From Actinomycetota bacterium (GTDB taxonomy: Bacteria > Actinomycetota > Actinomycetes > Propionibacteriales > Propionibacteriaceae): 64,000 nucleotides of DNA. Position 1 is the stretch's first letter. The number at the start of each line of letters is the position of its first letter. Positions 28,670 through 48,043 of this stretch are shown here, piece by piece. The stretch is taken from NCBI GenBank assembly GCA_046732135.1, contig JBKPML010000075.1, positions 1,222 through 65,221 on the forward strand, read 5' to 3'. Made by a program: the position numbers and the translations under genes. Under the pieces are notes generated by a model, which was not told where the DNA came from, did no database searches, and saw only the letters and a program-made list of their open reading frames with translations.

Positions 28670-30107
28670 GGCTCACCGTTCTTGAGACACTCGGTTGCCT
28701 GGGATCGATCGGTGTGATGGTGCCAAACCTGTCCTCCAGCGACGCTGCCGCGTTCAGGCACAAGTCCTCGCCGTATCGAGGTCCGACCAGCTGAACCGCC
28801 TGCGGGAGACCAGCGGCGACACCTACCGGAACGGCGACGGCGGGAAGGCCGAGCGCGTTGACCGCCAGAGACATCCGCATTCCGCGGACGATCTCGGCGA
28901 CCTCGGCGACCGTCAGGTCCTTGCCGGCCTCGAACGGCGTATCGGTGCAAATCGGGGCCAGTACCAGAGGATGGTTCTCCTGAAACTCTCCCCACGACTG
29001 AAGCAGTGATTGCCGAATGATGAAGCTTTGGACCGTCGTGACGGGATCCGCATCGCCCGCCACCTCGAAGAACGCCGACATGAACCGATTGGTGTCGACC
29101 GGCATCGACGCTGAGATCAACTGCCACCCGGCCCTGATGTCCGGGGTGCTGAGCATGTCGAGCAGAATCTTCGCCGCGAGCCCGATGGATGGCGGCTCGA
29201 CCTCGGCAACCTCGTAGCCCGCATCGGCCAGAGCGCCGGCCGCCATCCGAACACCGTCCTGCACCTGGTTCCCCGTGCCTTGGCCAGCCGGGTCCATCAC
29301 CACGGCCACGCCAATGGGCCGGTCAGCTTTGACGCTGTGCAGCGGTACCGGCACCGTCCAGGGATCGCGCCAAGTTGGTCCAGCGATCACATTCAAGGTG
29401 ATCCGGAGGTCCGCCACACGGCGCGCGATCGGGCCCTCGACCGCCGTCAGCTGGACGCCGATTGGTGCGTTTCGGGGCTCGAGTGTCGACGCATGCGGAA
29501 CGCGTCCGAGGGTTGGCTTCAGCGCGCACACCCCGCAGCACTGGGCTGGCCATCGAAGCGATCCCAGTCCATCGGTGCCAAGCCCCAGCGGCGTCATCCC
29601 GGTCGCCAGGGCGGCAGCCTCGCCGCCGCTCGAGGCGCCCGGAGTGAGAAAGCGATCCCACGGATTAACCGTGGCGCCCCATAATTCGCTCTCGGTGTGC
29701 CACCGAACTGCGAACGTCGGAAGGTTCGTGCGGCCGATTGGGATCCCGCCTGCGGCCTTGAGCCGCTCGACAACGGGCGCATCCAGACTCGGATAGGCGG
29801 CGTCAAACGCCCTCGCGCCCAAAGTGGTCGCGGTGCCCAGGAGATCGATATTGGCCTTGACAGTGAACGGAACGCCATGCAGCGCCGGCAGATCACCGCC
29901 ATCGGCGAGCGCACGATCGGCTGCTTTGGCCGCTTGCAACGCCTGCTCCCCGAGTACGACGGGAACGGCGTTGACAGCAGGATTGACGGCCTCAATCCGC
30001 TTGAGATGGGATTCCATGACCTCTTGGCACGAAGTTCGCCGCGATCTGATGGCTTCGGCCAGCTCGACGGCGCTCATCTGCCAAAGCTCGGCAGTCGTGA
30101 CGCTCAT
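28656..30107 (-). CDS. Amidase signature family enzyme
   Basis: HGVPFTVK, GASSGG and GTDGLGSLRWPA (K-cisS-S triad). Confidence 0.9.
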   Translation of the reverse strand: MSVTTAELWQMSAVELAEAIRSRRTSCQEVMESHLKRIEAVNPAVNAVPVVLGEQALQAAKAADRALADGGDLPALHGVPFTVKANIDLLGTATTLGARAFDAAYPSLDAPVVERLKAAGGIPIGRTNLPTFAVRWHTESELWGATVNPWDRFLTPGASSGGEAAALATGMTPLGLGTDGLGSLRWPAQCCGVCALKPTLGRVPHASTLEPRNAPIGVQLTAVEGPIARRVADLRITLNVIAGPTWRDPWTVPVPLHSVKADRPIGVAVVMDPAGQGTGNQVQDGVRMAAGALADAGYEVAEVEPPSIGLAAKILLDMLSTPDIRAGWQLISASMPVDTNRFMSAFFEVAGDADPVTTVQSFIIRQSLLQSWGEFQENHPLVLAPICTDTPFEAGKDLTVAEVAEIVRGMRMSLAVNALGLPAVAVPVGVAAGLPQAVQLVGPRYGEDLCLNAAASLEDRFGTITPIDPRQPSVSRTVSRATN

Positions 30108-30169
30108 ACCTACCTTCGTTCACCGCACCGATGTGGTGACAAACGAGGCGATCGGCCCGAAGCTGGTTG

Positions 30170-31576
30170 ATGATCGAGGGGGTGGTCCTGACGGAAAGGC
30201 TAACCGCCGAAGACCTACTCATGCTATGGCCGGACAAGGTCTGGCCACAGGAGATCGGTGCCCTGGCCGTGCTCGACGGACGCCGGCTGATAGAAACTGG
30301 TGGCCGGTTCCGGATCGAGGCTGTTCAGGACGCCGTTCAGAACAGGCTGCATCTGGTGCCCAGGTTCCGGCAGCTCTTGTACGTTCCGCGTCGAGGGCTT
30401 GGCCCCCCGCTGTGGGTAGATGCGCCCGCCTTCGATCTCAATGACCACCTAAGGGTCGCTCAAGTTGAGTCCCCTGGCGACGAGACTCAACTTCTGCGGA
30501 CGACGGAGCGGCTGCGACGGCGGCGTCTGGATCGAACCCGCCCGCTGTGGGAGATGTGGTTTCTTTCTGGGCTGCCCGACAACCGGATCGGCCTGTTCGT
30601 GCGCATGCACCACGTGATCGCCGATGGCATGGCCGGGATCGCAACGGTCAGCGCGTTCCTCGACACCGAACCCGATTCGCCAGCCCCTTCCGCGCAGCCG
30701 TGGACGCCGACGGTCATGCCGAGAGCGCGCGAACTACTCACCGACAACGCCAGGCGACGGGTAGCCGTCCTGCGAAATGGTCTATCCAACCTCGTACGAT
30801 CCGGAACCAGCCTGCGTCGGATGCGGACCACCTGGCCGGAGATGCGCGGCTTCTTCACTCAGAAACCACAGCCGGGGACCAGCCTGAACCGGACAGTCGG
30901 CCCCGATCGAAACCTCGCTCTCATCCGCAGCGATCTGGACACGGTCAAGGGGGTCGCGCACAGCAATAAGGCGACCGTCAACGATGTCGTCCTCACCGTC
31001 GTCGCGGGCGGTTTGAGCGAGCTGTTGCGCAGTCGTGGCGAAGCCGTCGACGAGGTTCTCCTGCCGACGTACGTGCCCGTCACCTTGCGGCACGGACAGC
31101 GGGATCAGGCGCGCGGAAATCTAATCGGGCAGATGGTGGTTCCGCTACCCCTCGGGGTCTCGGACCCGATTGAACGGCTTCACCAGATAGCGGCGGACAC
31201 GGTCAGACAAAAGGCAAGACCGCATCCCGCCTTGGGCACATTGCTGTCCAGTCGGGTCGCCCGTTGGGTGCTGCTGAAGTTCCTGGACCGCCAGCCGGTG
31301 AACGTGACCACGGCGGACCTGCCAGGTCCACAGGTGCAGGCCTATTTTGCTGGAGCTCGGCTTGTCGAGGTATTTCCCTTGCTGCCATTGATCGGGAAGG
31401 TGCCGCTGGGTGTGGGTGCGCTGTCCTATTCGGGACAGTTCAACATCATGGTCGTTGCCGATCGGGATGCCTGCCCAGACCTCGACGTCTTCACTGCCGG
31501 GGTCCGAGCCGCGCTCCAGGCCCTGGAGCGGCAGCCGCTGCAGCGGCCGGAAGCGCCCCTTGCTGAAGCCCCGTAG
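30170..31576 (+). CDS. Wax ester synthase/diacylglycerol acyltransferase (WS/DGAT)
   Basis: LDRTRPLWEM, HHVIADG catalytic motif, ATVNDVVL and ALSYSG. Confidence 0.9.
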   Translation: MIEGVVLTERLTAEDLLMLWPDKVWPQEIGALAVLDGRRLIETGGRFRIEAVQDAVQNRLHLVPRFRQLLYVPRRGLGPPLWVDAPAFDLNDHLRVAQVESPGDETQLLRTTERLRRRRLDRTRPLWEMWFLSGLPDNRIGLFVRMHHVIADGMAGIATVSAFLDTEPDSPAPSAQPWTPTVMPRARELLTDNARRRVAVLRNGLSNLVRSGTSLRRMRTTWPEMRGFFTQKPQPGTSLNRTVGPDRNLALIRSDLDTVKGVAHSNKATVNDVVLTVVAGGLSELLRSRGEAVDEVLLPTYVPVTLRHGQRDQARGNLIGQMVVPLPLGVSDPIERLHQIAADTVRQKARPHPALGTLLSSRVARWVLLKFLDRQPVNVTTADLPGPQVQAYFAGARLVEVFPLLPLIGKVPLGVGALSYSGQFNIMVVADRDACPDLDVFTAGVRAALQALERQPLQRPEAPLAEAP

Positions 31577-31640: not shown

Positions 31641-32438
31641 TTATGGCCTACGCCAGCCGTCGCTGTCGATGTGGGAGCCGGCCTGCGGGCCCATTTGGAG
31701 CATGCCGCCATCGACCACCCATGACGCGCCCGTGACATATGCGGCCTTGGGACTGGCGAGGAAGCTGATCACCGCCGCGATCTCCCGTGCGTCGCCCGGC
31801 CGGCGCAGTGGAATTCCTGGGCGTTCCTGCTGGTGCGGGTCCAGGTCTTCCTGGCCGGTCATCGGAGTAGCGATCTCCCCCGGTGCAACGGAGTTTGCCG
31901 TGATCCCGTGTCGGCCAAGCTCCAGGGCAAAGGTCTTCATCAGGCCGCCGAGGCCGTGCTTTGCCGCGTCGTACGGGCCCGAGCCGACGCGAGGCTGATG
32001 TTCATGAACACTGGTCACCGCTATCAAGCGGCCACCCTTGCCACCGGCCACCATCTGCTTAGCGGCCCGTTGCAGGCAGACGAATGCGCCATCAAGATCG
32101 ACTGCGACGATTTTGCGCCACTGGTCGTACGACATGTCAACCAGCAGGGTCGAACCTCCGGTGCCGGCGTTGTTGACGAAGACGTCGAGGCCCCCGAGTT
32201 GCTTGGCAAGATCGTTCACCACTGCGCCGCAGCCCGGCAGATCACTGGTGTCCAGCTGCGCGATATACGCTTTCCGCCCCGCCGCTCGGACCTCCTCGGC
32301 GGTCGCCTCGGCGCCCTCGGAATCGGAATGCCAGGTAATCCCGATGTCCATGCCGTCCTTCGCCAATGCCACCGCTGTGGCCTTGCCGATCCCAGAGTCG
32401 GACGCAGTGACAATGGCGTAGCGCGGTTCAAAGGTCAT
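31641..32438 (-). CDS. SDR family oxidoreductase (YohF-like)
   Basis: TASDSGIG, NNAG, SVHEHQP, YDAAK and PGEIATPM motifs. Confidence 0.9.
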   Translation of the reverse strand: MTFEPRYAIVTASDSGIGKATAVALAKDGMDIGITWHSDSEGAEATAEEVRAAGRKAYIAQLDTSDLPGCGAVVNDLAKQLGGLDVFVNNAGTGGSTLLVDMSYDQWRKIVAVDLDGAFVCLQRAAKQMVAGGKGGRLIAVTSVHEHQPRVGSGPYDAAKHGLGGLMKTFALELGRHGITANSVAPGEIATPMTGQEDLDPHQQERPGIPLRRPGDAREIAAVISFLASPKAAYVTGASWVVDGGMLQMGPQAGSHIDSDGWRRP

Positions 32439-32525: not shown

Positions 32526-32575
32526 TTGACATTTCAGCAGCTGCGTGTTTAGATCGATCTAAATAGATCGATCTA
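32526..32575 (+). promoter_or_regulatory. Promoter (-35 TTGACA) overlapped by two abutting LacI-type operators
   Basis: TTGACA at 32526-31. Perfect palindromes TTTAGATCGATCTAAA (32548-63) and TAGATCGATCTA (32564-75), each with central CG. Confidence 0.8.
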
Positions 32576-32602: not shown

Positions 32603-33622
32603 ATGGCGCGTACGACGTTGATTGACGTTGCCCGGCATTGCGGGGTATCTCGAGCGACCGTGAGCCTGGTGTTGAACGACAGCCCACTGGTGGCGGATCA
32701 GACCGCCAAGCGGGTCCGACAGGCGATGTCTGAGTTGGGCTATGTCTACAACAAAGCAGCTGCGTCGCTGCGGACTCAGCGGAGCGACGCAATCGGTGTG
32801 GTGATGACCGAGATCACGAATCCGTACTTTGCGGAGTTCGCCGCCGGGCTGCAGGAGATCCTGACTGAATCTCGCACGGTGCCGCTGCTTGCCATCAGCG
32901 GCGAGGACCGGGCTCTACAACACCGGTTGATGACGTCGCTGGTGGAACGCAACGTCGACGGGATCGTCCTGATCCCTGCGCACGGAACCAAAGCGGATGA
33001 CCTTCCAGATCTGCTTGGTATCCCTTTGGTGCTGATGGCTCGACGGCTACCCGGCACCGACGTCGATTACGTGGGTGCCCAGAACCGCGACGGCGGATAC
33101 GCTGCAGCCGAACACCTGTACCGCCATGGCTGCCGCAACATCGCCTTCGTCGGCGGCTTCACTGATGCCTCGGCCCGAGAGGAGCGGGCGGGCGGAGTGA
33201 GCGCCTTTCTCAAAGCGCACGGCCTCGTACTCGACGAGGACCACTCCGTGACCTGCGAGCCTCTGCGGCCCCTCGCTCGCGCTGCCGCTATGCGGCTGCT
33301 GACCGACCACGTGGACGTCGATGCGATCGTCTGCTTCAACGACGTCGTCGCTTTCGGGGTCTTGGACGCAATCGCCGATTTGGGGCTTCGCGTTGGCAGC
33401 GACGTCCGGGTGATCGGTTTCGACGACGTGCATGACGCCGGCCTCAACCGGCCCTCGCTCAGCAGCGTTGCCGTGCCGGCTCGTGAAACCGGCCGCCGGG
33501 CCGCGCAACTTGCGCTGGAACGTGGCGCCGGATCCACGAAGCCGACCGTACGCGAGGAATTCCCGACCAAGCTTCAGCCGCGCGAGACCTGCGGCTGCCC
33601 CCATCCCCAATCGCTGATCTGA
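32603..33622 (+). CDS. LacI family transcriptional regulator
   Basis: TLIDVARHCGVSRATVSLVLN HTH, LGYVYNKAAASLR hinge and IGFDD. Confidence 0.95.
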   Translation: MARTTLIDVARHCGVSRATVSLVLNDSPLVADQTAKRVRQAMSELGYVYNKAAASLRTQRSDAIGVVMTEITNPYFAEFAAGLQEILTESRTVPLLAISGEDRALQHRLMTSLVERNVDGIVLIPAHGTKADDLPDLLGIPLVLMARRLPGTDVDYVGAQNRDGGYAAAEHLYRHGCRNIAFVGGFTDASAREERAGGVSAFLKAHGLVLDEDHSVTCEPLRPLARAAAMRLLTDHVDVDAIVCFNDVVAFGVLDAIADLGLRVGSDVRVIGFDDVHDAGLNRPSLSSVAVPARETGRRAAQLALERGAGSTKPTVREEFPTKLQPRETCGCPHPQSLI

Positions 33623-33655
33623 ATTCACACATATTCCGAAGGATCAATCACGCAA

Positions 33656-35296
33656 ATGCGCACAGTGCCCGTGCTGACCGGCGCAGACGCCGCTCGGCTG
33701 ATTGCAGACTCCGACGTCATCACCGTCTCCTCTTCCTCCGCACTCGGCTGTCCCGACGCCGTGCTGGAGGCCATTGGACGGCGATACGCCGAAACCGGCT
33801 CTCCGGCAAGTCTTACCGCTCTTCATCCGATCGCAGCCGGTGATATGTACGGGGTCAAGGGGATTGATCATCTTTGCCAGCCGGGTCAGCTGCGCCGGGT
33901 GCTGGCTGGCTCGTACCCATCCGGCGGATCCAAGCTCGATCCGCCGCTAATCCGCAAGCTCATTCACTCCGACCAGATTCAGGCACTGAACATTCCGTCT
34001 GGGGTGCTCTTTCAGATGCACCGAGCAGCTTCGACTGGTCAGCCGGGAGTGCTTACCGAGGTCGGCCTAGGGACGTACGCGGACCCGCGGCAAGAGGGGG
34101 CGAAGATGAACGCTGTGACCGACGACTTCGTCCAGCTGATGAAGTTCGGCGGCAAGGAATACCTCTTCTATCCGGCGGTCAAGGTGGATGTTGCCATCAT
34201 CCGCGCCACGACCGCCGATCCGTACGGAAACCTCTCGCACGAGCACGAGGGTGGCACCCTCGGTGCACTTGACCAGGCCTACGCCGCCCATAACGACGGC
34301 GGCATTGTGATTGCCCAAGTGAAACGGTTGTCCGAGGAGCAGCTGCCCACCCAGAGTGTCCGAGTGCCTGGTGTCCTGGTCGACGCCGTCGTCGTCGCGC
34401 CCGATCAGCTGCAGACCACCCAGACCGTCTACGACCCTGCATTGTCCGGCGAGGTGCACCGCGACCTCGACGACATCGAACCAATCGCATTCGGCTTGGA
34501 GAAGGTGATTGCGCGCCGCGCCGCCGCCGAGCTCCAGGTCGACGCCACGGTGAACCTCGGCTTCGGAATCTCCGCCGCCGTGCCCAGGGTGCTGCTGGAG
34601 GAGGGCCACGCGGAGGATGTCACCTGGGTGATCGAACAGGGTGCGGTGGGTGGTTTTCCCGCGACCGGGTTCGCATTCGGCTGCGCGTTGAACCCTCAGG
34701 CGGTCGTCCAGAGCGTTGATCAGTTCACCCTGCTGCAAGGCGGGGGCTTCGACGTGGCGATGCTGTCCTTCCTGGAAGTGTCCGGCAAGGGCGACGTCAA
34801 TGTGTCGTACCTGCCTGCCCGGCCACATGTCACCGCCGGCGTCGGTGGCTTCAACGACATCGTCACCCGAGCGCCCAAGATCGTGTACTCCGGTTACTTC
34901 ACCGCTGGCAAGAAGGACATCCAGATTGCGGACGGCCAGCTCGATATCGTTTCCGATGGCACGGTCGCCAAGTTCGTCCCGGAGGTCGCCCAGATTTCCT
35001 TCTCCGGCGAGATGGCACGGCGTCGCCGCCAAGACGTCCTCTATGTCACCGAACGTTGCGTCATCCAGTTGACCGAGGCGGGGCTTACGGTGATCGAGAT
35101 CGCCCCCGGCGTCGACCTCGAACGTGACGTGCTGGCCAAAGCGGAAGTACCGCTGCTCGTGAGCCACGATTTGCGGCTGATGTCAGCGGCCCTTTTCCGA
35201 CCCGAGCCGATGGGACTGATCTTGTCTCACAAACCATCTCGGATCGCCCGCTTCCTTCAGCAAAGAGATCAACCCCAGCACACCGGGCGCACCTGA
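33656..35296 (+). CDS. Acyl-CoA:acetate/3-ketoacid CoA transferase (fused, YdiF/Pct type)
   Basis: GLGTYADPR, NLGFGI, catalytic IEQG, GGFNDI and YVTERCV motifs. Confidence 0.9.
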   Translation: MRTVPVLTGADAARLIADSDVITVSSSSALGCPDAVLEAIGRRYAETGSPASLTALHPIAAGDMYGVKGIDHLCQPGQLRRVLAGSYPSGGSKLDPPLIRKLIHSDQIQALNIPSGVLFQMHRAASTGQPGVLTEVGLGTYADPRQEGAKMNAVTDDFVQLMKFGGKEYLFYPAVKVDVAIIRATTADPYGNLSHEHEGGTLGALDQAYAAHNDGGIVIAQVKRLSEEQLPTQSVRVPGVLVDAVVVAPDQLQTTQTVYDPALSGEVHRDLDDIEPIAFGLEKVIARRAAAELQVDATVNLGFGISAAVPRVLLEEGHAEDVTWVIEQGAVGGFPATGFAFGCALNPQAVVQSVDQFTLLQGGGFDVAMLSFLEVSGKGDVNVSYLPARPHVTAGVGGFNDIVTRAPKIVYSGYFTAGKKDIQIADGQLDIVSDGTVAKFVPEVAQISFSGEMARRRRQDVLYVTERCVIQLTEAGLTVIEIAPGVDLERDVLAKAEVPLLVSHDLRLMSAALFRPEPMGLILSHKPSRIARFLQQRDQPQHTGRT

Positions 35297-35335
35297 CCGA
35301 CCGGTCCCAGTTGCCAACCATGGAAAGGAACCACC

Positions 35336-36955
35336 ATGGCCGCTTCCTACTACGACTACGTGATTGTCGGCGCCGGCGCCGCCGGATGCGCGGTTGCCAA
35401 TCGGTTGTCTGCCGACCCCCAAACGTCCGTTTTGCTGCTCGAGGCCGGAGGCAAAGACTGGTCACCACTGGTCCACATACCCGTTGGGTTCACCAAGCTC
35501 GGCGGTCCTCGCTACAACTGGGAGTTTTCAACGATCCCGCAGCCGCAGCTGAACAACCGGGAGATGTGGTATCCCCAAGGCAGGACGCTCGGTGGCAGCA
35601 CCTCGATCAACGCGATGATCTATATCCGCGGCCAGAAACAGGACTACGAGGCCTGGGCCGCCATGGGCAACCCTGAGTGGGGTTATGAGCAGGTGCTGCC
35701 ATTCTTCCGCCGGGCCGAGGCGAATGAGCGGCTGAACGATCGATACCACAGCAGCGTCGGTGCCGTGAGCGTCGTCGAACAGGTCCAGCACAACAAATTG
35801 AGCAAGGCGTTCATCCGGGCCGCCCAGGAGCTTGGCGTTTCCTACAACGCTGACTTCAATGGCGCCTGCCAGGAAGGGGTTGGCTGGTACGACGTCACCC
35901 AGAAGAACGCCCAGCGGGACAGCGCCTCGACCGCCTACCTGAAGCCCGCCCGCAATCGCCCCAACCTGACGATCGAAACGCATGCGGTCGGCCGCAAGAT
36001 CATCGTGAATAACGGCTACGCCGTGGGACTGGAATACACCAAGAAGGACGAGCAGGTTACCGTCCGGGTCGACCGCGAGTTGATCTTGAGCGGCGGCGCG
36101 ATCAACTCGCCGCGGCTGATGCTGCTCTCCGGTATCGGCCCTGGCGATGAGCTAAGTGCACTGGGGATTCCCGTCCAGCTCGACCTGCCCGGTGTGGGGA
36201 AGAACCTCCAGGACCATATGGATGTCTACCTGACCGCGGCCACGGCGCCGGTCAGCTACAACGCATCCGATCGACCGGACAAAGCCCTGCTCGCCGGCCT
36301 GCAGTACATCACCACCAAGACCGGCCCGGTCACCGCGTGCGTCTGCGAGGCGGGAATGTTCGTTCGCAGCACGCCCGATGTGCCAACCCCTGACATTCAG
36401 ATGCACGCCCTCCCCGCCTACGTCATCGACCACGGCCGGATGCGCATCCGTGGCCACGGCATGACGATCAACACCTGTCATCTGCGGCCGAAAAGTATCG
36501 GATCGGTCAGGTTGCACTCCGCGAACCCGGCCGATCCGCCGGAGATCGACCCGGCATTCTTGACTGACCCTTACGACTGGGAGAAATCCTTGGAGGGATT
36601 CCGCTGGGGCCGGGAGATGATGCGCAGCAAGGCGTATCAACCGCTTGTCCTGAAGGAGTTTCTCCCCTCTGCCGAGGTCAAGACGGACAAGGAGATCCGC
36701 GACTACGTCAAGCAGTGGGCGAAGACCGACTACCACCCGGTCGGCACCTGCAAGATGGGCGAGGACGAATTCGCGGTCGTTGATCAAGAACTCAAGGTCC
36801 GCGGCATGGAGAGCCTGCGGGTGATCGACGCCTCGATCATGCCGAAGTTGATCAGCGGCAACACCATGGCTACGTCGACCATGATCGGTGAAAAGGGCGC
36901 CCACCACGTGCTGCGCGGCCTGACCCCTCCTGACCTCAGGGACGGCCCGATATGA
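35336..36955 (+). CDS. GMC oxidoreductase (choline/sorbose dehydrogenase-like)
   Basis: GAGAAG, GRTLGGSTSINAMIYIRG, GVGKNLQDH, YHPVGTCKMG and GNT. Confidence 0.9.
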   Translation: MAASYYDYVIVGAGAAGCAVANRLSADPQTSVLLLEAGGKDWSPLVHIPVGFTKLGGPRYNWEFSTIPQPQLNNREMWYPQGRTLGGSTSINAMIYIRGQKQDYEAWAAMGNPEWGYEQVLPFFRRAEANERLNDRYHSSVGAVSVVEQVQHNKLSKAFIRAAQELGVSYNADFNGACQEGVGWYDVTQKNAQRDSASTAYLKPARNRPNLTIETHAVGRKIIVNNGYAVGLEYTKKDEQVTVRVDRELILSGGAINSPRLMLLSGIGPGDELSALGIPVQLDLPGVGKNLQDHMDVYLTAATAPVSYNASDRPDKALLAGLQYITTKTGPVTACVCEAGMFVRSTPDVPTPDIQMHALPAYVIDHGRMRIRGHGMTINTCHLRPKSIGSVRLHSANPADPPEIDPAFLTDPYDWEKSLEGFRWGREMMRSKAYQPLVLKEFLPSAEVKTDKEIRDYVKQWAKTDYHPVGTCKMGEDEFAVVDQELKVRGMESLRVIDASIMPKLISGNTMATSTMIGEKGAHHVLRGLTPPDLRDGPI

Positions 36956-37740
36956 GCCAGCTCGCTACACCGGAGATCGGCCAGGTCGGCGTCGAGGTCG
37001 ACGATGTGGTTGCCACGATCCGCCTGGATCGGCCCGCCAAGCACAATGCGCTGACGCCGGAAATGCTTGATCAACTCGAACAGATCCTCGCCGACCTCGA
37101 TTCAGACCGCGGCATACGAGTTGTCCTGGTGACCGCGGCCGGAGACCGCTCCTTTTGTGCAGGTGCAGATATCCGGCGCTTCAAGGCGCTGCATCCGTTG
37201 GACATGTGGGCTCAATGGACCCGGCAGGGCCATCGGATATTCGACCGCCTCGCCCGGCTGCGACAGCCGACCATCACGGCTGTCTCCGGTAATGCGTATG
37301 GCGGTGGTTTGGAACTCGCACTGGCCTGCGACCTCCGCATCGTCGCCGAGGACGCCATCCTTGGTCTCACCGAGGTTGGCATCGGCACCATTCCCGGATG
37401 GGGAGGAACCGGACGGCTACGCGATTTGATCGGCGCCGGCCGAGCCAAACAAATGATCTTCACCGGTGAACCGCTGACCGCCGACCAGGCGCTGGCGTGG
37501 GGACTTGCGAACCAGCTCGCGCCGAGGACCAAGGTGATTTCTACGGCTCGCACGCTGGCCGTCAAGATCGCCAACCGCGCGCCGATCGCGGTCCAGATGG
37601 CCAAACAATCGATCGACGCCGGGGATGCCTACCAGGCCATGGAGCAGGTCGCCTCCGCCGCAACTGCGTTCACGGAGGACGCGGCCGAAGGTTTCGCATC
37701 CTTCACCGAGAGGCGCGATCCGGACTACCGCGGCATCTGA
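36952..37740 (+). CDS. Enoyl-CoA hydratase/crotonase
   Basis: FCAGAD oxyanion loop; both catalytic Glu present (GGGLEL, LTEV). Confidence 0.9.
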   Translation: MSQLATPEIGQVGVEVDDVVATIRLDRPAKHNALTPEMLDQLEQILADLDSDRGIRVVLVTAAGDRSFCAGADIRRFKALHPLDMWAQWTRQGHRIFDRLARLRQPTITAVSGNAYGGGLELALACDLRIVAEDAILGLTEVGIGTIPGWGGTGRLRDLIGAGRAKQMIFTGEPLTADQALAWGLANQLAPRTKVISTARTLAVKIANRAPIAVQMAKQSIDAGDAYQAMEQVASAATAFTEDAAEGFASFTERRDPDYRGI

Positions 37741-37787
37741 GACCGTGCCCGCCCTGAAGAACCCGCCAACCCCGATAAGGCATCAAA

Positions 37788-39302
37788 ATGACCACCACGA
37801 TCACCAGCACCGACCCCACCACCATTTCCGCCAATATCTGGCCCAACATCATCGACGGCCGGGACGTCGACGGTGCCGGCGAGGAGGTACTGCGCGAAAG
37901 CCCAGCACACGACGTACGGGTAGCCAGCTACCACAGCGCAGGCGAGGCGGACGTCGATGCAGCGGTTGCAGCAGCGGTCCGTACCTTTTCCTCCGGCGAC
38001 TGGGCGCGAACTTCCGGCGCGGAGCGAGCTGCGCTGCTACGACGGGTCGCTGCCCAGATCGAGGCTGAACTCGACGAGCTGGCTTTGATCGAGGCACTGG
38101 AGTCGGGCAAGCCCATATCCCAGGCGAAGGACGAAGTCTCCAGTTCAGCGGGTATCTGGTACTACGCCGCCAGCCTCGCCCAGCACGCCTACGGTGACGC
38201 CCACAACGATTTGGGCCCGAACTATCTCGCAGTCACAGTTAAGGAACCGGTCGGTGTCGTGGGCGTGATCACGCCCTGGAACTTCCCGCTCTTGATCGCG
38301 TCGCAGAAACTGCCTTTCGCCCTCGCGGTCGGCTGTACGGCGGTGATCAAGCCCAGCGATCTCACCCCGGGAACCACGACGCGCCTCGTCCAGATCCTGC
38401 ATGCCGAAGGGCTACCCCCGGGGGCTGTCAACCTGGTTCACGGCGGCGGAGATGTTGGCGGCTGGCTTTCGGCTCATCCCGGAACCCAGATGACTACCTT
38501 CACGGGGTCCACCGGAGTTGGCCGCATGGTCGCGGCCGCCGCCGCTAAGGACCTAAAGAAGGTCAGCTTGGAGCTGGGTGGCAAGAACCCGCAAGTGATC
38601 TTTCCCGACGCCGACCTTGACGCTGCCCTCGAGAAGGTTGTCTTCGGCGCGTACTTCAACCAAGGCGAGTGCTGCAACGCCGGCTCCCGGCTGCTGGTGC
38701 ACGCTGACATCGCCGACGACTTCACCGCCCGCGTCGTAGAACGCGCCCAGGACGTCGCCGTCGGCGATCCGCTCAGCCCCGCCACCAAGGTGGGTGCACT
38801 CATCTCTGAGAAGCACCTTGGCGTGGTCAGTGGCTATGTCGGCATCGGGCAGCAAGAAGGCGCCTCGGTTGCGCTTGGTGGCGATCGGCTGACCTCGGAC
38901 CGCGGCCGGTACTACTCGCCCACGGTGCTTGCCGACGTACCTAAGACGGCCCGAGTCGCTCGGGAGGAAATCTTCGGGCCCGTGCTGTCGGTGGTGAAGT
39001 TCGCGGATCTTGAGGAGGCGGTGGAGATCACCAACGCCACCGGGTACGGGCTGAGCGCCGGCGTCTGGAGCCGCAATCTCGACACTGCTCTCGGCTACGC
39101 GCGGGCCACCAAGGCCGGAACCGTTTGGATCAACTGCTACATGGACGGCTTCCCCGAGATCTCCTTCGGCGGTTATGGCGCATCGGGCATCGGTCGTGAA
39201 CTGGGCCGTACCGCTATCGATGAGTACATCGAGCACAAGAGCATGATCATCCGGACCGGCGGGCAGACCCCCTCCTGGGTCGGCGGCGTGGGTGAGAAGT
39301 GA
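37788..39302 (+). CDS. NAD(P)-dependent aldehyde dehydrogenase (sorbosone dehydrogenase-like)
   Basis: ITPWNFP, FTGSTGVG, LELGGK, GECC and EEIFGPV motifs. Confidence 0.9.
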   Translation: MTTTITSTDPTTISANIWPNIIDGRDVDGAGEEVLRESPAHDVRVASYHSAGEADVDAAVAAAVRTFSSGDWARTSGAERAALLRRVAAQIEAELDELALIEALESGKPISQAKDEVSSSAGIWYYAASLAQHAYGDAHNDLGPNYLAVTVKEPVGVVGVITPWNFPLLIASQKLPFALAVGCTAVIKPSDLTPGTTTRLVQILHAEGLPPGAVNLVHGGGDVGGWLSAHPGTQMTTFTGSTGVGRMVAAAAAKDLKKVSLELGGKNPQVIFPDADLDAALEKVVFGAYFNQGECCNAGSRLLVHADIADDFTARVVERAQDVAVGDPLSPATKVGALISEKHLGVVSGYVGIGQQEGASVALGGDRLTSDRGRYYSPTVLADVPKTARVAREEIFGPVLSVVKFADLEEAVEITNATGYGLSAGVWSRNLDTALGYARATKAGTVWINCYMDGFPEISFGGYGASGIGRELGRTAIDEYIEHKSMIIRTGGQTPSWVGGVGEK

Positions 39303-40909
39303 CAGTGGGCCAGCCACCGCCCACGCCACAGCTGCGGGAAGGCGCGCTCGTCGTACCTGATCAACAGAAGCTGACTGCCGACGTGGTGATCATCGGCTCG
39401 GGCATGGGTGGCGGCACCCTCGCCTGGGCCTTGAAGGACAGCGGCTTGGACGTCCTCATCGTGGAGCGTGGACAGTTCCTACCTCGAGAACCAGAGAACA
39501 GCCAGCCTGATCACGTATTCATCAAGAAGCGATATGTCACCTCCAAACCCTGGTACGACGCCAAATCTGGCCGACCCTTCCAACCGGGCGTCTACTACTG
39601 GGTGGGCGGGAACACCAAGATGTACGGTGCCTGCCTGCCGCGCTTCCGGCGCAGCGACTTCGCAGAGGTGGTCCACCACGATGGTGTCTCGCCCGCGTGG
39701 CCGTTCAGCTACGACGACATCGAGCCGTTCTACGGTCAGGCAGAACAGCTCTACGAGGTCCACGGCGTCGTGGACGAAGATCCGACGGAACCGCCTCATT
39801 CAAGCGACTACCCGTACCCACCGCTCAGCCACGAACCGGCCGTGGAGCGTCTGGCGAACTACCTCTATCTGCAGGGTTTGCATCCGTTTCACATGGCTTG
39901 TGGCATGCACCTGCCCTCCATGGCCGAACGCCGAGCCGACGCCACCGCCGACGGCTCGCCGTCTTCGACCGGCGCCAAGAGCGATGCCGAGAACCGCGCA
40001 GTTCGCCCGGCATTGGAATCGGACAACGTCCGACTGCTGCTCGGCGCCTACGTGCGGCGCCTGCACACCACACCGAGCGGTGATCAAGTCAGCCGGGCAG
40101 AGGCGCAGATCGGCGACCAGGTGTTGCGGATCGAGGCAAAGACCTTTGTCGTCTCTGGCGGTGCGGTCAACTCTGCCGCCTTGCTGCTTCGCTCAGTGAG
40201 CGATCAGCACCCGAACGGGCTGGGCAACTCCTCCGGTCTGCTGGGCCGCAACTACATGGTTCACAACAGCACATTCTTTCTGGCAGTCGATCTCAGACAC
40301 AGAAATCAGACTGCATGGCAAAAGACCTTGGGTTTGAACGACTGGTACGAGGCCGGCCCGGATACCCCCTACCCGCTCGGCAACCTCCAGATGCTCGGCA
40401 AGCTAAAAGCGCCCATGATCAAAAGCGCCCGGCCCTGGGCGCCGATGTGGGCCCTCAAGACCCTCACCGATCGCAGCCTCGACATCTACCTCACTACCGA
40501 GGACCTGCCTCGGCCCGACAATCGCGTCACCGTGGATGGCGACGAAATCACTATTAGCTGGACCCCGAACAACCTGGTGCCGCACCGCGAGCTTGTCAAA
40601 CGTGTCAGCCACGCAGTCCACAAGGCCGGCTATCCGATCGGGCTCACCGAACGGATGGGCATCGGAACCAACTCCCACATGTGTGGCACCACCGTGGCGG
40701 GCATAGACCCGGCTCGCAGCATCCTCGACCGCGACTGCCGCAGCCACGAGGTCGGCAACTTGTTCGTCGTCGATAGCAGCTTCTTCCCTTCGTCGGCGGC
40801 GCTGAATCCCGCACTCACCATCGCCGCCAACGCACTTCGCGTCGCGCCAACCATCGCGGCCAGCGCACTCGCCGGAAGGATCAACTCAGATGAACTCCAC
40901 GACCGCTAG
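39299..40909 (+). CDS. Second GMC oxidoreductase (sugar/gluconate dehydrogenase flavoprotein-like)
   Basis: GSGMGG, GGNTKMYGA, GRNYMVH, SHMCGT and ALNPALTIAANALRV motifs. Confidence 0.85.
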   Translation: MTVGQPPPTPQLREGALVVPDQQKLTADVVIIGSGMGGGTLAWALKDSGLDVLIVERGQFLPREPENSQPDHVFIKKRYVTSKPWYDAKSGRPFQPGVYYWVGGNTKMYGACLPRFRRSDFAEVVHHDGVSPAWPFSYDDIEPFYGQAEQLYEVHGVVDEDPTEPPHSSDYPYPPLSHEPAVERLANYLYLQGLHPFHMACGMHLPSMAERRADATADGSPSSTGAKSDAENRAVRPALESDNVRLLLGAYVRRLHTTPSGDQVSRAEAQIGDQVLRIEAKTFVVSGGAVNSAALLLRSVSDQHPNGLGNSSGLLGRNYMVHNSTFFLAVDLRHRNQTAWQKTLGLNDWYEAGPDTPYPLGNLQMLGKLKAPMIKSARPWAPMWALKTLTDRSLDIYLTTEDLPRPDNRVTVDGDEITISWTPNNLVPHRELVKRVSHAVHKAGYPIGLTERMGIGTNSHMCGTTVAGIDPARSILDRDCRSHEVGNLFVVDSSFFPSSAALNPALTIAANALRVAPTIAASALAGRINSDELHDR

Positions 40910-41945
40910 CGGCTCCCGTCCCACCACCAGTCCGATCACCATCGGCCTGGTCGGGGCAAGCCAGATCGCCATGAGCCGGATGCTGCCGGCATTCGCTGCC
41001 GTCGGCATCCGCGTATTCGGTCTCTATGACAACGAACCCCGACGATTCGCCTACTGGACGGACAGTGGCGTCGAGGAACAGACTTCAAGGCTCGACGAGC
41101 TGCTGTCCAGCCGTCTCGACGCTGTCTACATCTCGACGCGCAACGACCAGCACCTGGCGGAAGCTGTCGCTGCCGCGGAAGCCGGCAAGCACATCCTGGT
41201 CGAGAAACCGATGGCATTGAGCATCGAGGATGCCCAAACCATGATCGACGCCGCGGACCGCAACGGCGTGGTCCTCGCCGTCAATCACCATCTACCCGGT
41301 AGCCCGCTGCATGTCACCGCGCGCCGATTGGTCGCGGAGGGCACGATCGGCAGGCTGTACTCGGCCCGGGTCAACCACGCAGTGCTGTTACCAGAGCACC
41401 TTCGAGGATGGCGGCTCGCGGATATTCCGGGCGGAGGCGTGGTCTTCGATATCACCGTCCACGACGCGTCCGTTCTCAACCCGCTGTTTGGCGCTGCACC
41501 AACGCAGGTCGCAGCATTAGGACTCTCCCAGGCGCCATGGAACAAAGCGCGGACGCGTGATTCTGTGATGACGGTCCTGAAATATCCGGCGGCGGATGGA
41601 GGCGTGCCGGGCTTGGCCCAGACGCATGACTCCTTCGCTCTCCCCTACCCGGGGACCAGCCTTGAGATACACGGGGAAAGCGGAGCGATCATCATCGGCG
41701 ACGCCATGACCCAGGACACTCCTGGCACAGTCGAACTTCATACTGCCGAGGGCGTTCAGGCGATCGATGTCGACTGCAGCGACGATCTTTACCACATCAA
41801 CGTCCGCGCCTTCGCCGCCGCCATTCATGGCGAAGGCCGACCCACAGCGACCGGATCGGACGGCCTTCGCGCGCTCCAGGTTGCGGTTGGAGTCGAGGAG
41901 TCACTGAAGACAGGCCGAACGACACTAATCGACAATGTGACATGA
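40890..41945 (+). CDS. afr: Gfo/Idh/MocA oxidoreductase, 1,5-anhydro-D-fructose reductase-like
   Basis: EKP motif plus NHHL, HAVLLPEHLRGWRL, GGGVVFDITVHDA, MTQ and TATGSDG, which match the rhizobial AFR sequence as I recall it. Confidence 0.7.
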   Translation: MNSTTASGSRPTTSPITIGLVGASQIAMSRMLPAFAAVGIRVFGLYDNEPRRFAYWTDSGVEEQTSRLDELLSSRLDAVYISTRNDQHLAEAVAAAEAGKHILVEKPMALSIEDAQTMIDAADRNGVVLAVNHHLPGSPLHVTARRLVAEGTIGRLYSARVNHAVLLPEHLRGWRLADIPGGGVVFDITVHDASVLNPLFGAAPTQVAALGLSQAPWNKARTRDSVMTVLKYPAADGGVPGLAQTHDSFALPYPGTSLEIHGESGAIIIGDAMTQDTPGTVELHTAEGVQAIDVDCSDDLYHINVRAFAAAIHGEGRPTATGSDGLRALQVAVGVEESLKTGRTTLIDNVT

Positions 41946-41970: not shown

Positions 41971-42813
41971 ATGAGCGGTAGCAGTATCGACACCGTCGTG
42001 TCCAACCGGTCTGCGGTGCCGGTGTTCTTTCTGTCCGACAGCACAGGCATCAGCGCTGAAACCATGGGCAACGCGCTGCTTATTCAGTTTCCCGACCTGC
42101 GGTTCGAGCGGCGGCTTATCCCGTTCATCTCCACGGTCGAGGAGGCCCGACGGGTCGTTCAGGTGCTGGACGCCGCCATGGACGGGCCCGTCACGCCACT
42201 CGCCTTCACGACCGCGGCAGTCGATGAGATCCGAGAGGTTCTGCATACGTCGCGATGCCCGATCATCGACTTCTTTGACATGCACATGTCCCGGGTGGAG
42301 TCGATTCTCGGAGTGCGGGGCCTGCACGTCGCCTCCCGGCTCCACAGCGTCGGCGATATCCAGCGGTACAACGCCCGGATGGCCGCGGTCGAGTACGCCA
42401 TTGAGCACGACGACGGGCAGAGCACGCGAGCCCTCGACAAAGCCGAGGTGATCTTGCTGGCACCGTCACGCTGCGGCAAGACACCTACAACCATGTACTT
42501 GGCCCTGCAACACGGGATCTTCGTCGCCAACTATCCGCTGGTGGAGGATGACTTCGACACGACGGACCTGCCGCGTCCAGTCCGGCAGCTCGGAGATCAC
42601 TGCTTTGGTCTCACCACCACGCCTATCCGGCTCAGCCAGGTTCGGCATGAACGCCGCCCCAACTCTCGCTACGCCTCGCTCGAGCAATGCACGTTCGAGC
42701 TACGGCGAGCCGAGGCCCTGTATCACCGGCATGGCATCCCAGTGATCAACTCTTCAGCCAAGTCAGTTGAGGAAATGTCCACCGTGATCTTGCAAGCACT
42801 CCAGCAGTCATAG
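41971..42813 (+). CDS. ppsR: PEP synthase regulatory kinase/pyrophosphorylase (DUF299)
   Basis: [26 protein letters not shown] and ANYPL motifs; directly upstream of ppsA. Confidence 0.9.
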
Positions 42814-42836
42814 CCGCCCATTGTCTAGGAGTCACG

Positions 42837-45221
<2,385 letters not shown>

Positions 45222-45273
45222 CCTCCCAGCTGGTCACGGCGCAAACGAAGCGCACAACCAGCAGGATAGGAGC

Positions 45274-46987: not shown

Positions 46988-48043
46988 ATGGAATATCGAC
47001 AGCTGGGCCGGTCCGGCCTACGAGTTTCGTCCATCACGCTGGGCACGATGGGTTTCGGCGGCACCGGCTGGGCCGCAGCCGTGGGACAGATCGACGTCGA
47101 AGGAGCCCGCAAGCAGATCGGGTTGGCACGTGACGCCGGGGTCAACCTGTTCGACACCGCTGACGTCTATTCCAGCGGCACGTCAGAGGAAATCTTGGGA
47201 CAGGCACTCGGCTCAGATCGCGACGAGGTGCTGATCGCAACCAAAGTGCGGATGACAATGGGTGAAGGGCCCAACGATGCCGGACTTTCAAGGCACCACA
47301 TCATCCGTGGTGCCGAAGCCAGTCTCCGCCGCCTCGGCACTGATTACATCGACCTGTACCAGGTGCACGAATGGGACGGCCAGACCCCGCTGGAGGAGAC
47401 ACTGGCCGCCCTCGACCATCTCGTGCAGTCCGGAAAGGTGCGCTACATCGGTTGCTCCAATTACGCCGCCTGGCAACTCATGAAGGCGTTATGGATATCC
47501 GACCGTAAGGGGCTGGCAAGCTTCGTCAGCCAGCAGGTTTACTACTCACTGCAAGCGCGCGACATCGAATACGAGATCGTGCCGCTGTGCGTCGATCAGG
47601 GCATCGGCATCTTGGTTTGGAGCCCGATCGCCGGCGGACTGATGTCCGGCAAGTACCGCCGCGATGTGGAAGCGCCGCCAGGCAGCCGGCATCTGAGCGA
47701 CTGGAGCGAGCCGCCCATTCACGATGAAGACAAGCTTTACGACACCATCGAGGAACTGATCGCCATCGGCGCCGATCACGGCATATCCGCCGCACAGGTC
47801 GCCCTCGCCTACATCATCGGCAAACCCGCGGTGACCTCGGTCATCGTTGGCGCCCGCACCGAGGACCAGCTCGCCGACAACCTGGCATCCGCCGAACTTG
47901 CGCTGTCCGACGACGAGATCGCTCGCTTGGACAAGGTCAGCGCCCAGCCCTTGCTGTACCCGCACTGGCATCAGGCCAATAACTCAAGCGACCGGCTCAG
48001 CGCAGCCGACTTAACCCTGCTAGCCCGGCACATCGAAGGCTGA
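46988..48043 (+). CDS. Aldo/keto reductase
   Basis: LGTMGFG, FDTADVYS.G.SEE, IATK, YIDLYQVH and GCSNY motifs. Confidence 0.95.
   Translation: MEYRQLGRSGLRVSSITLGTMGFGGTGWAAAVGQIDVEGARKQIGLARDAGVNLFDTADVYSSGTSEEILGQALGSDRDEVLIATKVRMTMGEGPNDAGLSRHHIIRGAEASLRRLGTDYIDLYQVHEWDGQTPLEETLAALDHLVQSGKVRYIGCSNYAAWQLMKALWISDRKGLASFVSQQVYYSLQARDIEYEIVPLCVDQGIGILVWSPIAGGLMSGKYRRDVEAPPGSRHLSDWSEPPIHDEDKLYDTIEELIAIGADHGISAAQVALAYIIGKPAVTSVIVGARTEDQLADNLASAELALSDDEIARLDKVSAQPLLYPHWHQANNSSDRLSAADLTLLARHIEG

Follow-up and report, generated by a model that had tools for sequence, protein, structure and literature searches.

What could a CoA-transferase and a crotonase contribute to an operon that ends in a relative of AFR, the reductase that converts 1,5-anhydro-D-fructose to 1,5-anhydro-D-mannitol (as given in PMC12441222, citing Kuhn 2006)? 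Since 2006 it has been an open question how aerobic bacteria use 1,5-anhydrofructose, 1,5-anhydromannitol or 1,5-anhydroglucitol past the AFR reaction. For 1,5-anhydromannitol a single model has been published (Kuhn 2006, as presented in PMC12441222); it invokes C1 hydroxylation to mannose and differs from the route proposed below. According to a 2025 review (PMC12441222), the hydroxylase is unidentified and an aerobic 1,5-anhydroglucitol pathway undescribed; the review adds that an enzyme of this kind could be used to bring down intestinal 1,5-anhydroglucitol in GSD Ib / G6PC3 neutropenia. We address the question from one 64-kb stretch of DNA, here called the window, which comes from the MAG of a soil actinobacterium (92% complete, 3.17 Mb assembly), and from related loci in other genomes.

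The operon and its products

Seven co-oriented genes on the + strand, at 32603-41945, encode LacI, CoA-transferase, GMC1, crotonase, ALDH, GMC2 and AFR-like proteins (Table 1), and all seven lie where the initial annotation had placed them. Its description of the genes as mostly overlapping holds for three of the six junctions (GMC1/crotonase, 4 nt; ALDH/GMC2, 4 nt; GMC2/AFR-like, 20 nt) and fails for the other three, which are gaps of 33-47 nt.

Table 1. Features of the operon and its surroundings, in window coordinates.
Feature	Position	Strand	Supporting match or source
TTGACA, possible -35 element	32526..32531	+	read directly
Predicted LacI-type operator 1, perfect palindrome TAGATCGATCTA	32550..32561	.	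direct reading and assembly search
Predicted LacI-type operator 2, same palindrome TAGATCGATCTA	32564..32575	.	direct reading and assembly search
LacI-family repressor, first gene of the operon	32603..33622	+	PF00356 and Peripla_BP_3
Family I fused (YdiF-type) CoA-transferase	33656..35296	+	PF01144; YdiF 2ahu 1.3e-108
GMC1, choline-dehydrogenase-like flavoprotein	35336..36955	+	GMC_oxred_N, GMC_oxred_C
Crotonase-fold enoyl-CoA hydratase/dehydratase	36952..37740	+	ECH_1 9e-55
NAD(P)-dependent aldehyde dehydrogenase (ALDH)	37788..39302	+	Aldedh 1.1e-158
GMC2, divergent FAD sugar dehydrogenase	39299..40909	+	weak GMC N and C matches
AFR-family Gfo/Idh/MocA oxidoreductase	40890..41945	+	2glx 1.1e-67; 4koa 1.2e-63
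ppsR and ppsA (PEP synthase regulator, PEP synthase)	41971..45221	+	NF049928/NF003742; NF005057 1208 bits

By its sequence, this is a putative LacI-regulated catabolic operon, with the repressor gene and predicted operators at its promoter. The two operators, with centres 14 bp apart, both lie 28-53 nt upstream of lacI and are the only exact copies of TAGATCGATCTA in the whole assembly; the 12-bp palindrome, allowing at most one mismatch, also precedes lacI in 55 of 80 related loci. We infer that TTGACA may belong to the operon promoter, although a consensus promoter scan upstream of the operon returned no full sigma-70 site. The ppsR/ppsA pair, co-oriented with the operon, starts 25 nt beyond the AFR-like gene, and a terminator scan between the operon genes and pps found nothing above chance level. 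The pair is possibly co-transcribed with the operon, but its link to the cluster is weak, since ppsR/ppsA was not found beside the cluster in related loci. Genes of SDR or AKR type flank the window cluster at 31641-32438 and 46988-48043.

The last gene had been called AFR-like from the letters alone, and structure matches bear this out: the AFR structures 2glx (232 bits) and 4koa (219 bits) score far ahead of the next family, glucose-fructose oxidoreductase (79 bits, 3.6e-21). Its VEKP and DITVHD motifs align with EKP and DITVHD of AFR. The Lys of EKP and the D..H of DITVHD, which we take to be the catalytic Lys94, Asp176 and His180 of AFR, are conserved across 46 cluster orthologues with few exceptions. 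The protein would reduce anhydrofructose to 1,5-anhydromannitol. At the positions of AFR Ser33 and Arg38, presumably the residues that specify NADPH, it has Asp and keeps the Arg, and this Asp probably makes the enzyme NAD(H)-linked; the Asp is confined to the window's clade, and most other cluster orthologues keep Ser..Arg. The AFR of Sinorhizobium morelense / S. meliloti (2glx, 4koa) belongs to the same Gfo/Idh/MocA subfamily and has the same gene context, with 41% identity to the S. meliloti protein, but S. meliloti afr directly follows lacI whereas the window gene ends its operon.

The CoA-transferase, named only in generic terms in public sources, aligns over residues 4-524 with E. coli YdiF (2ahu, 367 bits), its Glu326 matching YdiF Glu333, presumably the catalytic residue. 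The crotonase has both Glu residues reported for it earlier, in the motifs GGGLE and LTEVG, and we take them to correspond to catalytic Glu144 and Glu164 of rat enoyl-CoA hydratase; it scores under every cutoff among the NCBIfam equivalog models. We propose that these two proteins are an anhydro-uronate CoA-transferase and a 4,5-dehydratase of uronyl-CoA.

The N-terminal FAD-binding and GMC C-terminal domains are strong in GMC1 and weak in GMC2. GMC1 scores 598.6 bits against the choline dehydrogenase model NF002550, below the cutoff of 605, and its top PDB matches are oxidisers of primary alcohols (CmO 8b7s, choline DH 9lq0 and alcohol oxidases); its proposed substrate group is the C6 primary alcohol. 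The ALDH reaches no equivalog cutoff and may turn the resulting C6 aldehyde into a uronic acid. For GMC2 the best PDB matches are the catalytic subunit of FAD-glucose dehydrogenase (6a2u_B, 2.3e-36, 129 bits) and the large subunit of fructose dehydrogenase, and we propose that it oxidises 1,5-anhydroglucitol to anhydrofructose, with C2 as the inferred position of attack. Assigning GMC1 and GMC2 to particular carbons is a guess. Clusters of Arthrobacter and Streptomyces carry a Gluconate_2-dh3-GMC fusion in place of GMC1; the Arthrobacter substitute belongs to a type known to act on secondary alcohols, which counts against the proposed scheme.

Related loci and the genes absent from the window

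Related clusters were found in Arthrobacter, Streptomyces, Micromonospora, Amycolatopsis, Conexibacter, acI Planktophila, Kaistia and rhizobial replicons, so that the arrangement is conserved over Actinomycetota and Alphaproteobacteria. Among 33 distant loci with full flanks, defined by CoA-transferase identity below 70%, genes for LacI, ECH, ALDH, AFR-like and GMC2 proteins each accompany the transferase in 28-32, and the AFR-like gene adjoins it in 29. This arrangement is far beyond chance. The initial annotation mentioned comparable genes next to afr in rhizobia, and the gene for the crystallised S. meliloti AFR (4koa) does lie within the same set, in the order LacI-AFR-CoAT-ECH-ALDH-ABC-GMC-SDR-GMC-glycerate kinase. 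All seven window genes have counterparts there, at 37-57% identity (LacI 40%, ALDH 54%, CoA-transferase 57%).

A GH88 gene is present in 26 of the 33 distant loci. The cluster GH88 is homologous over its full length to the unsaturated glucuronyl hydrolase 1vd5 (1.6e-43) and keeps the residues at UGL positions Asp88, Asp149, His193, Gln211 and Arg221. KDPG aldolase, above the TIGR01182 cutoff, and PfkB kinases of keto-deoxy-acid (KDG) type occur in the flanks of 47 of 80 loci. Alphaproteobacterial clusters lack GH88 and have DUF993, SDR and glycerate kinase genes instead. The solute-binding proteins (SBPs) of the cluster ABC transporters belong to the glucose/galactose-binding CUT1 subfamily (4r2b, 781 bits; 8hqq, 398 bits), with a further match to 2b3b, a "glucose-binding protein"; 8hqq is a glucose complex (PMC11485210). 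The S. meliloti SBP, placed at the afr locus by gene numbering, is reported to be dextrin-induced (PMC4960864).

The cluster in the window has no transporter or kinase, as had been remarked earlier, and no GH88, KDG kinase or KDPG aldolase; a GH88 was not detectable anywhere in the 92% complete assembly. Read from gene content, the operon is a reduced copy of a widespread, uncharacterised gene cluster, from which GH88, kinase, aldolase and transporter have been lost. The GH88-aldolase-kinase block was independently deleted in at least three relatives, which implies either that GH88 is unneeded for ring opening or that those copies are decaying.

A proposed uronyl-CoA route

GH88 enzymes add water to the C4=C5 vinyl ether in unsaturated uronates, and CaiB/CaiD carry out CoA-dependent dehydration. 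Both reactions have a place in the route we propose. First, GMC2 would oxidise the C2 hydroxyl of anhydroglucitol to give anhydrofructose, and the AFR-family reductase would convert this to anhydromannitol. GMC1 and ALDH would take C6 to a 1,5-anhydro-uronic acid, and the YdiF-type transferase would form its CoA thioester, the donor probably being the product thioester, as in carnitine metabolism. The crotonase would remove H5 and the 4-OH to leave a 4,5-unsaturated enol ether. As far as this elimination step the window holds the proposed set, namely the repressor, two predicted operators and six enzymes. The CoA would then be passed on and the GH88 hydratase would put water on C5, giving a hemiketal that opens to a 2-keto-3-deoxy-hexonate chain. 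By Fischer-projection reasoning, the manno configuration would become D-erythro, which is exactly 2-keto-3-deoxy-D-gluconate (KDG), and KDG kinase and KDPG aldolase would finish with pyruvate and glyceraldehyde-3-phosphate. The ring would have to be locked, because neither GH88 nor CoA chemistry would be needed if the anomeric OH were free.

Such chemistry leads one to expect an enol-ether hydratase and enzymes for 2-keto-3-deoxy acids. The sequence from C6 acid through CoA ester and elimination to a 2-keto-3-deoxy acid, put forward in the initial annotation, gains support here, in that the predicted GH88, KDG-type kinase and KDPG aldolase, absent from the window, are found in homologous clusters together with glucose-type SBPs. 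A general uronyl-CoA elimination route, leaving the substrate unfixed, seems to us likely. That the operon is repressed by LacI and serves to break down a ring-locked pyranose of monosaccharide size, most likely 1,5-anhydro-D-glucitol, 1,5-anhydro-D-fructose or 1,5-anhydro-D-mannitol, is favoured by a modest margin. Weighing against it are the lack of a detectable GH88 in the window's genome and of GH88 in alphaproteobacterial clusters, the missing AFR-like gene at the locus in many close relatives, the Asp at the Ser33 position, the published mannose model and the dextrin induction reported for the S. meliloti SBP. That the cluster family is the missing aerobic, oxygenase-free 1,5-anhydro-hexitol route, in which a uronyl-CoA thioester is dehydrated by a crotonase and a GH88 opens the ether ring of a non-glycoside to yield KDG, stands at an even balance.

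Other readings and known systems

The same chemistry could serve another substrate, a small glycoside blocked at its anomeric centre (methyl, ethyl or glyceryl hexoside, thio- or N-glycoside). After C6 oxidation, CoA activation and dehydration, GH88 would free the aglycone and 4-deoxy-hexosulose-uronate, which a reductase would bring to KDG. Aglycone release is the usual job of GH88, whose active-site residues are fully conserved; SDR/AKR genes stand beside several clusters, including those of the window and S. meliloti; an SBP is reportedly dextrin-induced (PMC4960864); and KdgK and Eda would fit equally well. The extra aldehyde reductase so required is no conserved member of the cluster, however, and ordinary glycosidases would suffice without nine enzymes. 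The SBPs are of monosaccharide (glucose/galactose) type and AFR, the characterised enzyme of the cluster, uses a 1,5-anhydro sugar, and we consider the glycoside substrate unlikely. Pre-formed uronic acid compounds, such as glucuronides or 4-O-methylglucuronate, appear a very improbable substrate. Their CoA ester would let the 4-substituent leave while the GMCs, ALDH and AFR worked on side products. GH88, KdgK and Eda do form the classic module for unsaturated uronates, and a uronate isomerase locus lies elsewhere in the window's genome (UxaC, 540 bits), but four conserved oxidoreductases would have nothing to do, the SBPs look like glucose binders rather than uronate binders, and the conserved cluster genes include neither a polysaccharide lyase nor KduI or KduD.

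The published model, Kuhn 2006 as given in PMC12441222, would have AFR form anhydromannitol and an unlinked C1 hydroxylase convert it to mannose, leaving the CoA genes to an unrelated pathway for a non-sugar alcohol or hydroxy acid (GMC, ALDH, CoA ester, hydration). In keeping with it, the top-scoring models for GMC1 and ALDH are of choline and betaine-aldehyde type, short acids are the usual substrates of YdiF-type transferases, and many close relatives have no AFR-like gene at the locus. Against this, the AFR-like gene adjoins the transferase in 29 of the 33 distant loci, falls under a single LacI regulator whose predicted operator is conserved, and keeps company with GH88, KdgK, Eda and sugar transporters; the conserved cluster genes include no P450 or oxygenase. 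We regard this division of the genes as quite unlikely.

The uronyl-CoA route would combine elements of known systems. With the unsaturated-uronate route (GH88, KDG kinase, KDPG aldolase), related clusters share GH88, KdgK-like and Eda genes and, as proposed here, the 4,5-unsaturated uronate intermediate and KDG end product; the double bond would come from an intracellular CoA-dependent crotonase acting on a neutral sugar, not from a polysaccharide lyase, and KduI/KduD are absent. Carnitine dehydration by CaiB/CaiD, like the Pct/lactoyl-CoA system, follows the same proposed logic, in which a transferase makes the thioester of a hydroxy acid, a crotonase eliminates its beta-hydroxyl and CoA moves to the next substrate, but the transferase here is of family I (YdiF-type), not family III, and its proposed substrate is a sugar acid. 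The literature searched contained no mention of uronyl-CoA. In the 3-keto pathways (levoglucosan, C-glycoside, Bacteroides 3-keto-glycoside), which also employ Gfo/Idh/MocA or GMC oxidoreductases, a carbonyl acidifies the adjacent C-H, and a poor leaving group is eliminated from a stable ring. Activation by a C6 thioester with C4-C5 elimination would replace the 3-keto group with C1/C2 elimination, and the cluster appears to lack xylose-isomerase-like lyase genes. Anaerobic "anhydroglycolysis" (PTS and glycyl-radical YbiW/PflD) has the same presumed substrates, 1,5-anhydroglucitol and 1,5-anhydromannitol (PMC12441222, PMC13450708), but is strictly anaerobic, proceeds through phosphorylated intermediates, breaks the C-O bond by radical chemistry, and has no gene family in common with the cluster.

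For testing, the cluster provides a full list of enzymes in strains that can be cultured (S. meliloti 1021, Arthrobacter, Streptomyces). If the proposal is true, it would close a gap in the sugar metabolism of aerobes with the first sugar-acid CoA ester in catabolism, introduce uronyl-CoA chemistry, give GH88 enzymes a new job, supply a physiological reason for AFR making the manno epimer, and assign a function to the more than 7,000 members of a family generically named "propionate CoA-transferases". Hosts of that family include soil actinobacteria, rhizobia and the abundant freshwater acI lineage.

Gene content and active-site residues of the operon

The initial annotation had proposed seven co-oriented genes at 32603-41945, and Pfam and NCBIfam searches identified all seven of these open reading frames. 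Three of the junctions between them overlap, by 4, 4, and 20 nt, while the rest are spaced by 33-47 nt. No equivalog model in NCBIfam (June 2026) is reached by any of the six enzymes, and the public names of more than 7,700 close homologs of the transferase are generic.

Features of the operon region, with counterparts counted in the 33 loci that have 10 kb on both sides and transferase identity below 70%
Feature	Position in the window	Strand	Basis	Loci
Operator palindrome	32550-32561			
Operator palindrome	32564-32575			
LacI repressor	first ORF of 32603-41945	+	Pfam/NCBIfam	32/33
Fused family I CoA-transferase	second ORF	+	Pfam/NCBIfam	
GMC1, choline-dehydrogenase-like GMC flavoprotein	third ORF	+	598.6 bits vs 605-bit cutoff	11/33
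Gluconate_2-dh3-GMC fusion (takes the place of GMC1)				17/33
Crotonase	fourth ORF	+	Pfam/NCBIfam	32/33
Aldehyde dehydrogenase (ALDH)	fifth ORF	+	Pfam/NCBIfam	30/33
GMC2, divergent GMC	sixth ORF	+	Pfam/NCBIfam	28/33
Gfo/Idh/MocA oxidoreductase, AFR-like	40890-41945	+	Pfam/NCBIfam and PDB matches	29/33
385-aa ORF	45218-46375	+		

The crotonase has both glutamates, within GGGLE and LTEVG, which we take to be the catalytic Glu144 and Glu164 of rat enoyl-CoA hydratase. The CoA-transferase aligns over its full length with E. coli YdiF (367 bits), its Glu326 pairing with Glu333, presumably the catalytic residue of YdiF. Among solved structures, GMC1 is closest to enzymes that oxidize primary alcohols, namely CmO (chloramphenicol oxidase), choline dehydrogenase, and alcohol oxidases. 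GMC2 is closest to the catalytic subunits of FAD sugar dehydrogenases, from Burkholderia cepacia (glucose dehydrogenase) and Gluconobacter (fructose dehydrogenase).

The Gfo/Idh/MocA protein matches the two structures of 1,5-anhydro-D-fructose reductase (AFR) at 1e-67 and 1e-63, against 1e-21 or worse for every other member of the family, and it retains the lysine of EKP and the Asp and His of DITVHD. Around residues 45-52 of the window protein, members of its clade (the window and related loci L023, L024, and L030) read L(Y/F)D(N/T); the corresponding positions read xxSxS..R in 40-odd other cluster orthologs and in AFR itself. The aspartate, confined to this clade, falls at the position of AFR Ser33, which we take to be the NADPH-specifying residue, and suggests that the cofactor preference has changed from NADPH to NAD(H).

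Conservation and additional components in related loci

The window proteins were mapped onto 80 loci, each encoding a transferase relative. The gene set is strongly conserved among these loci, whose hosts include Arthrobacter, Streptomyces, Micromonospora, Amycolatopsis, Nonomuraea, Conexibacter, Solirubrobacter, the freshwater acI lineage (Planktophila, SCGC AAA044-N04), Kaistia, and other Hyphomicrobiales; tblastn against plasmid records adds 279 replicons, chiefly from Rhizobium and Sinorhizobium. The AFR gene is absent from the locus in many close relatives of the window.

Several variants of the cluster were seen. In Arthrobacter, Streptomyces, and "Nephthysia", the GMC1 slot is occupied by a 755-residue fusion of a Gluconate_2-dh3 small-subunit domain to a GMC catalytic domain (L064:11668-13935, with equivalents in L044, L045, L048, and L061-L075); GMC1 and the fusion never occur in one locus. 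Clusters of the acI lineage (L054:16464-16922, L055, and L072) place a GlcG/HbpS-like gene (PF03928) between GMC2 and the KDPG aldolase. On pSymA of S. meliloti M162 (L090, 643246-668805), a second, different cluster has the same transferase-crotonase pair immediately followed by glycerate kinase, and also carries an ALDH, a GMC, an acyl-CoA dehydrogenase, an SDR, a DHDPS-family gene, a sugar-phosphate isomerase/epimerase, ETF, and a ribose-type ABC transporter. More than one sugar-like pathway may make use of the CoA module.

The initial annotation had placed a similar gene set beside afr in rhizobia, and in S. meliloti the gene encoding the PDB 4koa sequence indeed sits among counterparts of all seven window proteins, at 37-57% identity. 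The annotated order is LacI, AFR, CoA-transferase (acyl-CoA:acetate/3-ketoacid CoA-transferase), enoyl-CoA hydratase, ALDH, solute-binding protein, two permeases, ATPase, GMC, SDR, GMC, and glycerate kinase, with a DUF993 gene, annotated as "dihydrodipicolinate synthase family", on the minus strand before LacI. The replicon is labeled pSymB but is evidently the chromosome, since it is 3.72 Mb long and carries leuB. Judged by gene order, the locus is presumably SMc04389-04402; the names of SMc04390-04392 fit that order (PMC12542648), and the binding protein SMc04396, which the same order would place here, is cited as dextrin-induced (PMC4960864).

Upstream of lacI, TTGACA is accompanied by two perfect, abutting palindromes, TAGATCGATCTA, a sequence with no other exact copy in the 3.17 Mb assembly. 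Of the 80 loci, 55 have the 12-bp operator, with one mismatch at most, directly before lacI, a link between regulator and cluster that spans wide evolutionary distances. The operator revealed no further regulon members: the only sites in the assembly with one mismatch (contig positions C148:9085 and C155:7177) lie in or beside unrelated genes that, by reading of translations, appear to be an ftsE/ftsX-like pair and an aldo-keto reductase-like ORF. Promoter and terminator scans gave no matches above the level of shuffled sequence, and an Rfam search of the whole window found no RNA element.

Gaps between the mapped genes in related loci hold four further components: a GH88 protein, a KDPG/KHG aldolase, a PfkB kinase, and a transporter. 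The first, 400 residues long, matches the Bacillus unsaturated glucuronyl hydrolase (UGL) 1vd5 over its full length (1.6e-43) and is conserved at UGL positions Asp88, Asp149, His193, Gln211, Arg221, Trp42, Trp219, and Trp225, of which we take Asp88 and Asp149 to be catalytic and Arg221 to bind the carboxylate; by these matches it is a genuine GH88. The aldolase scores above the TIGR01182 cutoff, the top models for the kinase are KDG/KDGal and 5-dehydro-2-deoxygluconate kinases, and both genes lie within the flanks of 47 of the 80 loci, in many lineages. The transporter is of the CUT1 ABC or MFS type. Similarity assigns the solute-binding proteins of the cluster to the glucose/galactose-binding subgroup: that of S. 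meliloti scores 781 bits to 4r2b, 410 to 5dvf, and 398 to 8hqq, the last a complex of SAR11_0769 with glucose (PMC11485210), and that of Micromonospora scores 225 bits to 2b3b, a "glucose-binding protein". Alphaproteobacterial clusters lack GH88 and carry DUF993, SDR, and glycerate kinase instead.

A candidate route through uronyl-CoA

Hydration of the vinyl ether at C4=C5 in 4,5-unsaturated uronates is the established reaction of GH88 enzymes, and 2-keto-3-deoxygluconate (KDG) is consumed by KdgK and Eda. A two-Glu crotonase removes the alpha-proton and beta-hydroxyl of a thioester, while a primary-alcohol GMC together with an ALDH can yield a carboxylate. Given this chemistry, the simplest scheme to use every conserved gene would start at C6 and pass through a uronyl-CoA. 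The C6 hydroxyl of a pyranose would be oxidized through the aldehyde to a uronic acid, which would be converted to its CoA ester and then to the 4,5-unsaturated uronyl-CoA; the CoA would be handed on to the next molecule of acid, as in CaiB/CaiD, and hydration at C5 by GH88 would open the ring to a 2-keto-3-deoxy acid. Conservation of Arg221 suggests that the substrate of GH88 is the free acid. We regard a route of this general kind, by elimination from a uronyl-CoA to KDG, as likely.

Such machinery would be needed only if the ring cannot open by itself, which implies a substrate with no free anomeric hydroxyl, and the type of solute-binding protein points to one of monosaccharide size. Together with the action on 1,5-anhydrofructose of AFR, the only cluster enzyme to have been characterized, these features point to 1,5-anhydro-hexitols, an assignment to which we give slightly better than even weight. 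GMC2 would oxidize anhydroglucitol at C2 to anhydrofructose, which AFR would reduce to the manno epimer. When the Fischer projection of 1,5-anhydro-D-mannitol is turned end for end, the old C3 and C2 would become C4 and C5 in the D-erythro configuration, so that the ring-opened product would be authentic KDG; the gluco epimer would yield an L-threo acid, which KDPG aldolase should reject. This difference would supply a purpose for GMC2 and AFR, and would explain the unusual stereochemistry of AFR.

The model hits of GMC1 and ALDH raise non-sugar readings, namely oxidation of choline, homocholine, carnitine-like compounds, PEG, or alkanols, which were set aside on the conserved context of GH88, KdgK, Eda, sugar-binding protein, and LacI. 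Within the uronyl-CoA scheme, the carbon oxidized is uncertain, since the fusion that replaces GMC1 is related to secondary-alcohol dehydrogenases. The DUF993, SDR, and glycerate kinase genes of alphaproteobacteria hint at a non-phosphorylative end (aldolase, glyceraldehyde, glycerate), and at a ring-opening catalyst other than GH88. A published model takes anhydromannitol to mannose by way of an unidentified P450-like hydroxylase, in a 2025 review according to which no oxidative pathway for 1,5-anhydroglucitol is known (PMC12441222).

Each part of the system belongs to a family already known (the AFR subfamily, YdiF-type transferases, crotonases, GMC, ALDH, or GH88), but their combination is so far undescribed. 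Full-text literature searches returned no paper that treats uronyl-CoA, GH88 in combination with CoA-transferases, or an aerobic route for anhydro-sugars that depends on CoA, and none connecting anhydro-sugars, uronyl-CoA, GH88, and CoA-transferases; the known anaerobic anhydro-sugar route uses glycyl-radical enzymes. The system is a catabolic operon built from known folds, whose pathway chemistry is potentially new.

A truncated copy and its genomic surroundings

The initial annotation read the operon as a CoA-dependent anhydrosugar pathway around an AFR homolog, and this reading gains independent comparative evidence from GH88, KdgK, Eda, and the sugar-binding protein in the wider family, but the window encodes the pathway only in part. 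Most close relatives carry a GH88-KDPG aldolase-KDG kinase block; in the window, the ALDH gene runs straight into that of GMC2 (overlap at 39299-39302), with no such block between them. The end-points of the deletion differ among the window, L033 (13550-13580), and L030 (15547-15640), where the first codons of the GH88 gene are still present. Three different junctions point to recurrent, independent loss within this clade. The copy in the window is truncated, and it could be an incomplete or a decaying one.

The assembly that includes the window (contig C75) has 181 contigs and is 92% complete, and the nearest relatives of the host are soil MAGs labeled Propionibacteriaceae or Actinomycetota. 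Within that assembly, we found no GH88 homolog anywhere, and no cluster-type solute-binding protein, glycerate kinase, or MFS transporter outside the window. Downstream of the operon, in the same direction, follow ppsR, ppsA, and the 385-aa ORF, at spacings of 25, 23, and -4 nt, the last an overlap with the ppsA stop codon. As ppsR and ppsA adjoin the cluster in no related locus, they were rejected as pathway members and are at most a possible local co-transcript. The 385-aa ORF, absent beside the cluster in related loci, was considered as a substitute for GH88 and rejected, as it has neither BLASTP similarity nor a Pfam or NCBIfam match. Upstream of the operon, positions 25711-31576 encode two neighboring serine hydrolases of the beta-lactamase family, an amidase, and a WS/DGAT wax-ester synthase; in related loci, none of them adjoins the cluster.

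The only counterparts elsewhere in the genome are a distant Eda (36%), a PfkB kinase (35%), and a DUF993 homolog (52%) in a separate uronate locus on contig C52 (400-16300). The glucuronate isomerase of that locus is confirmed (540 bits); tblastn and reading of translations suggest that the Eda-like aldolase is accompanied by Gfo/Idh/MocA homologs, CUT1 ABC transporter genes, and a DUF993 protein, the 52% identity of which is to its counterpart next to the afr cluster of S. meliloti.
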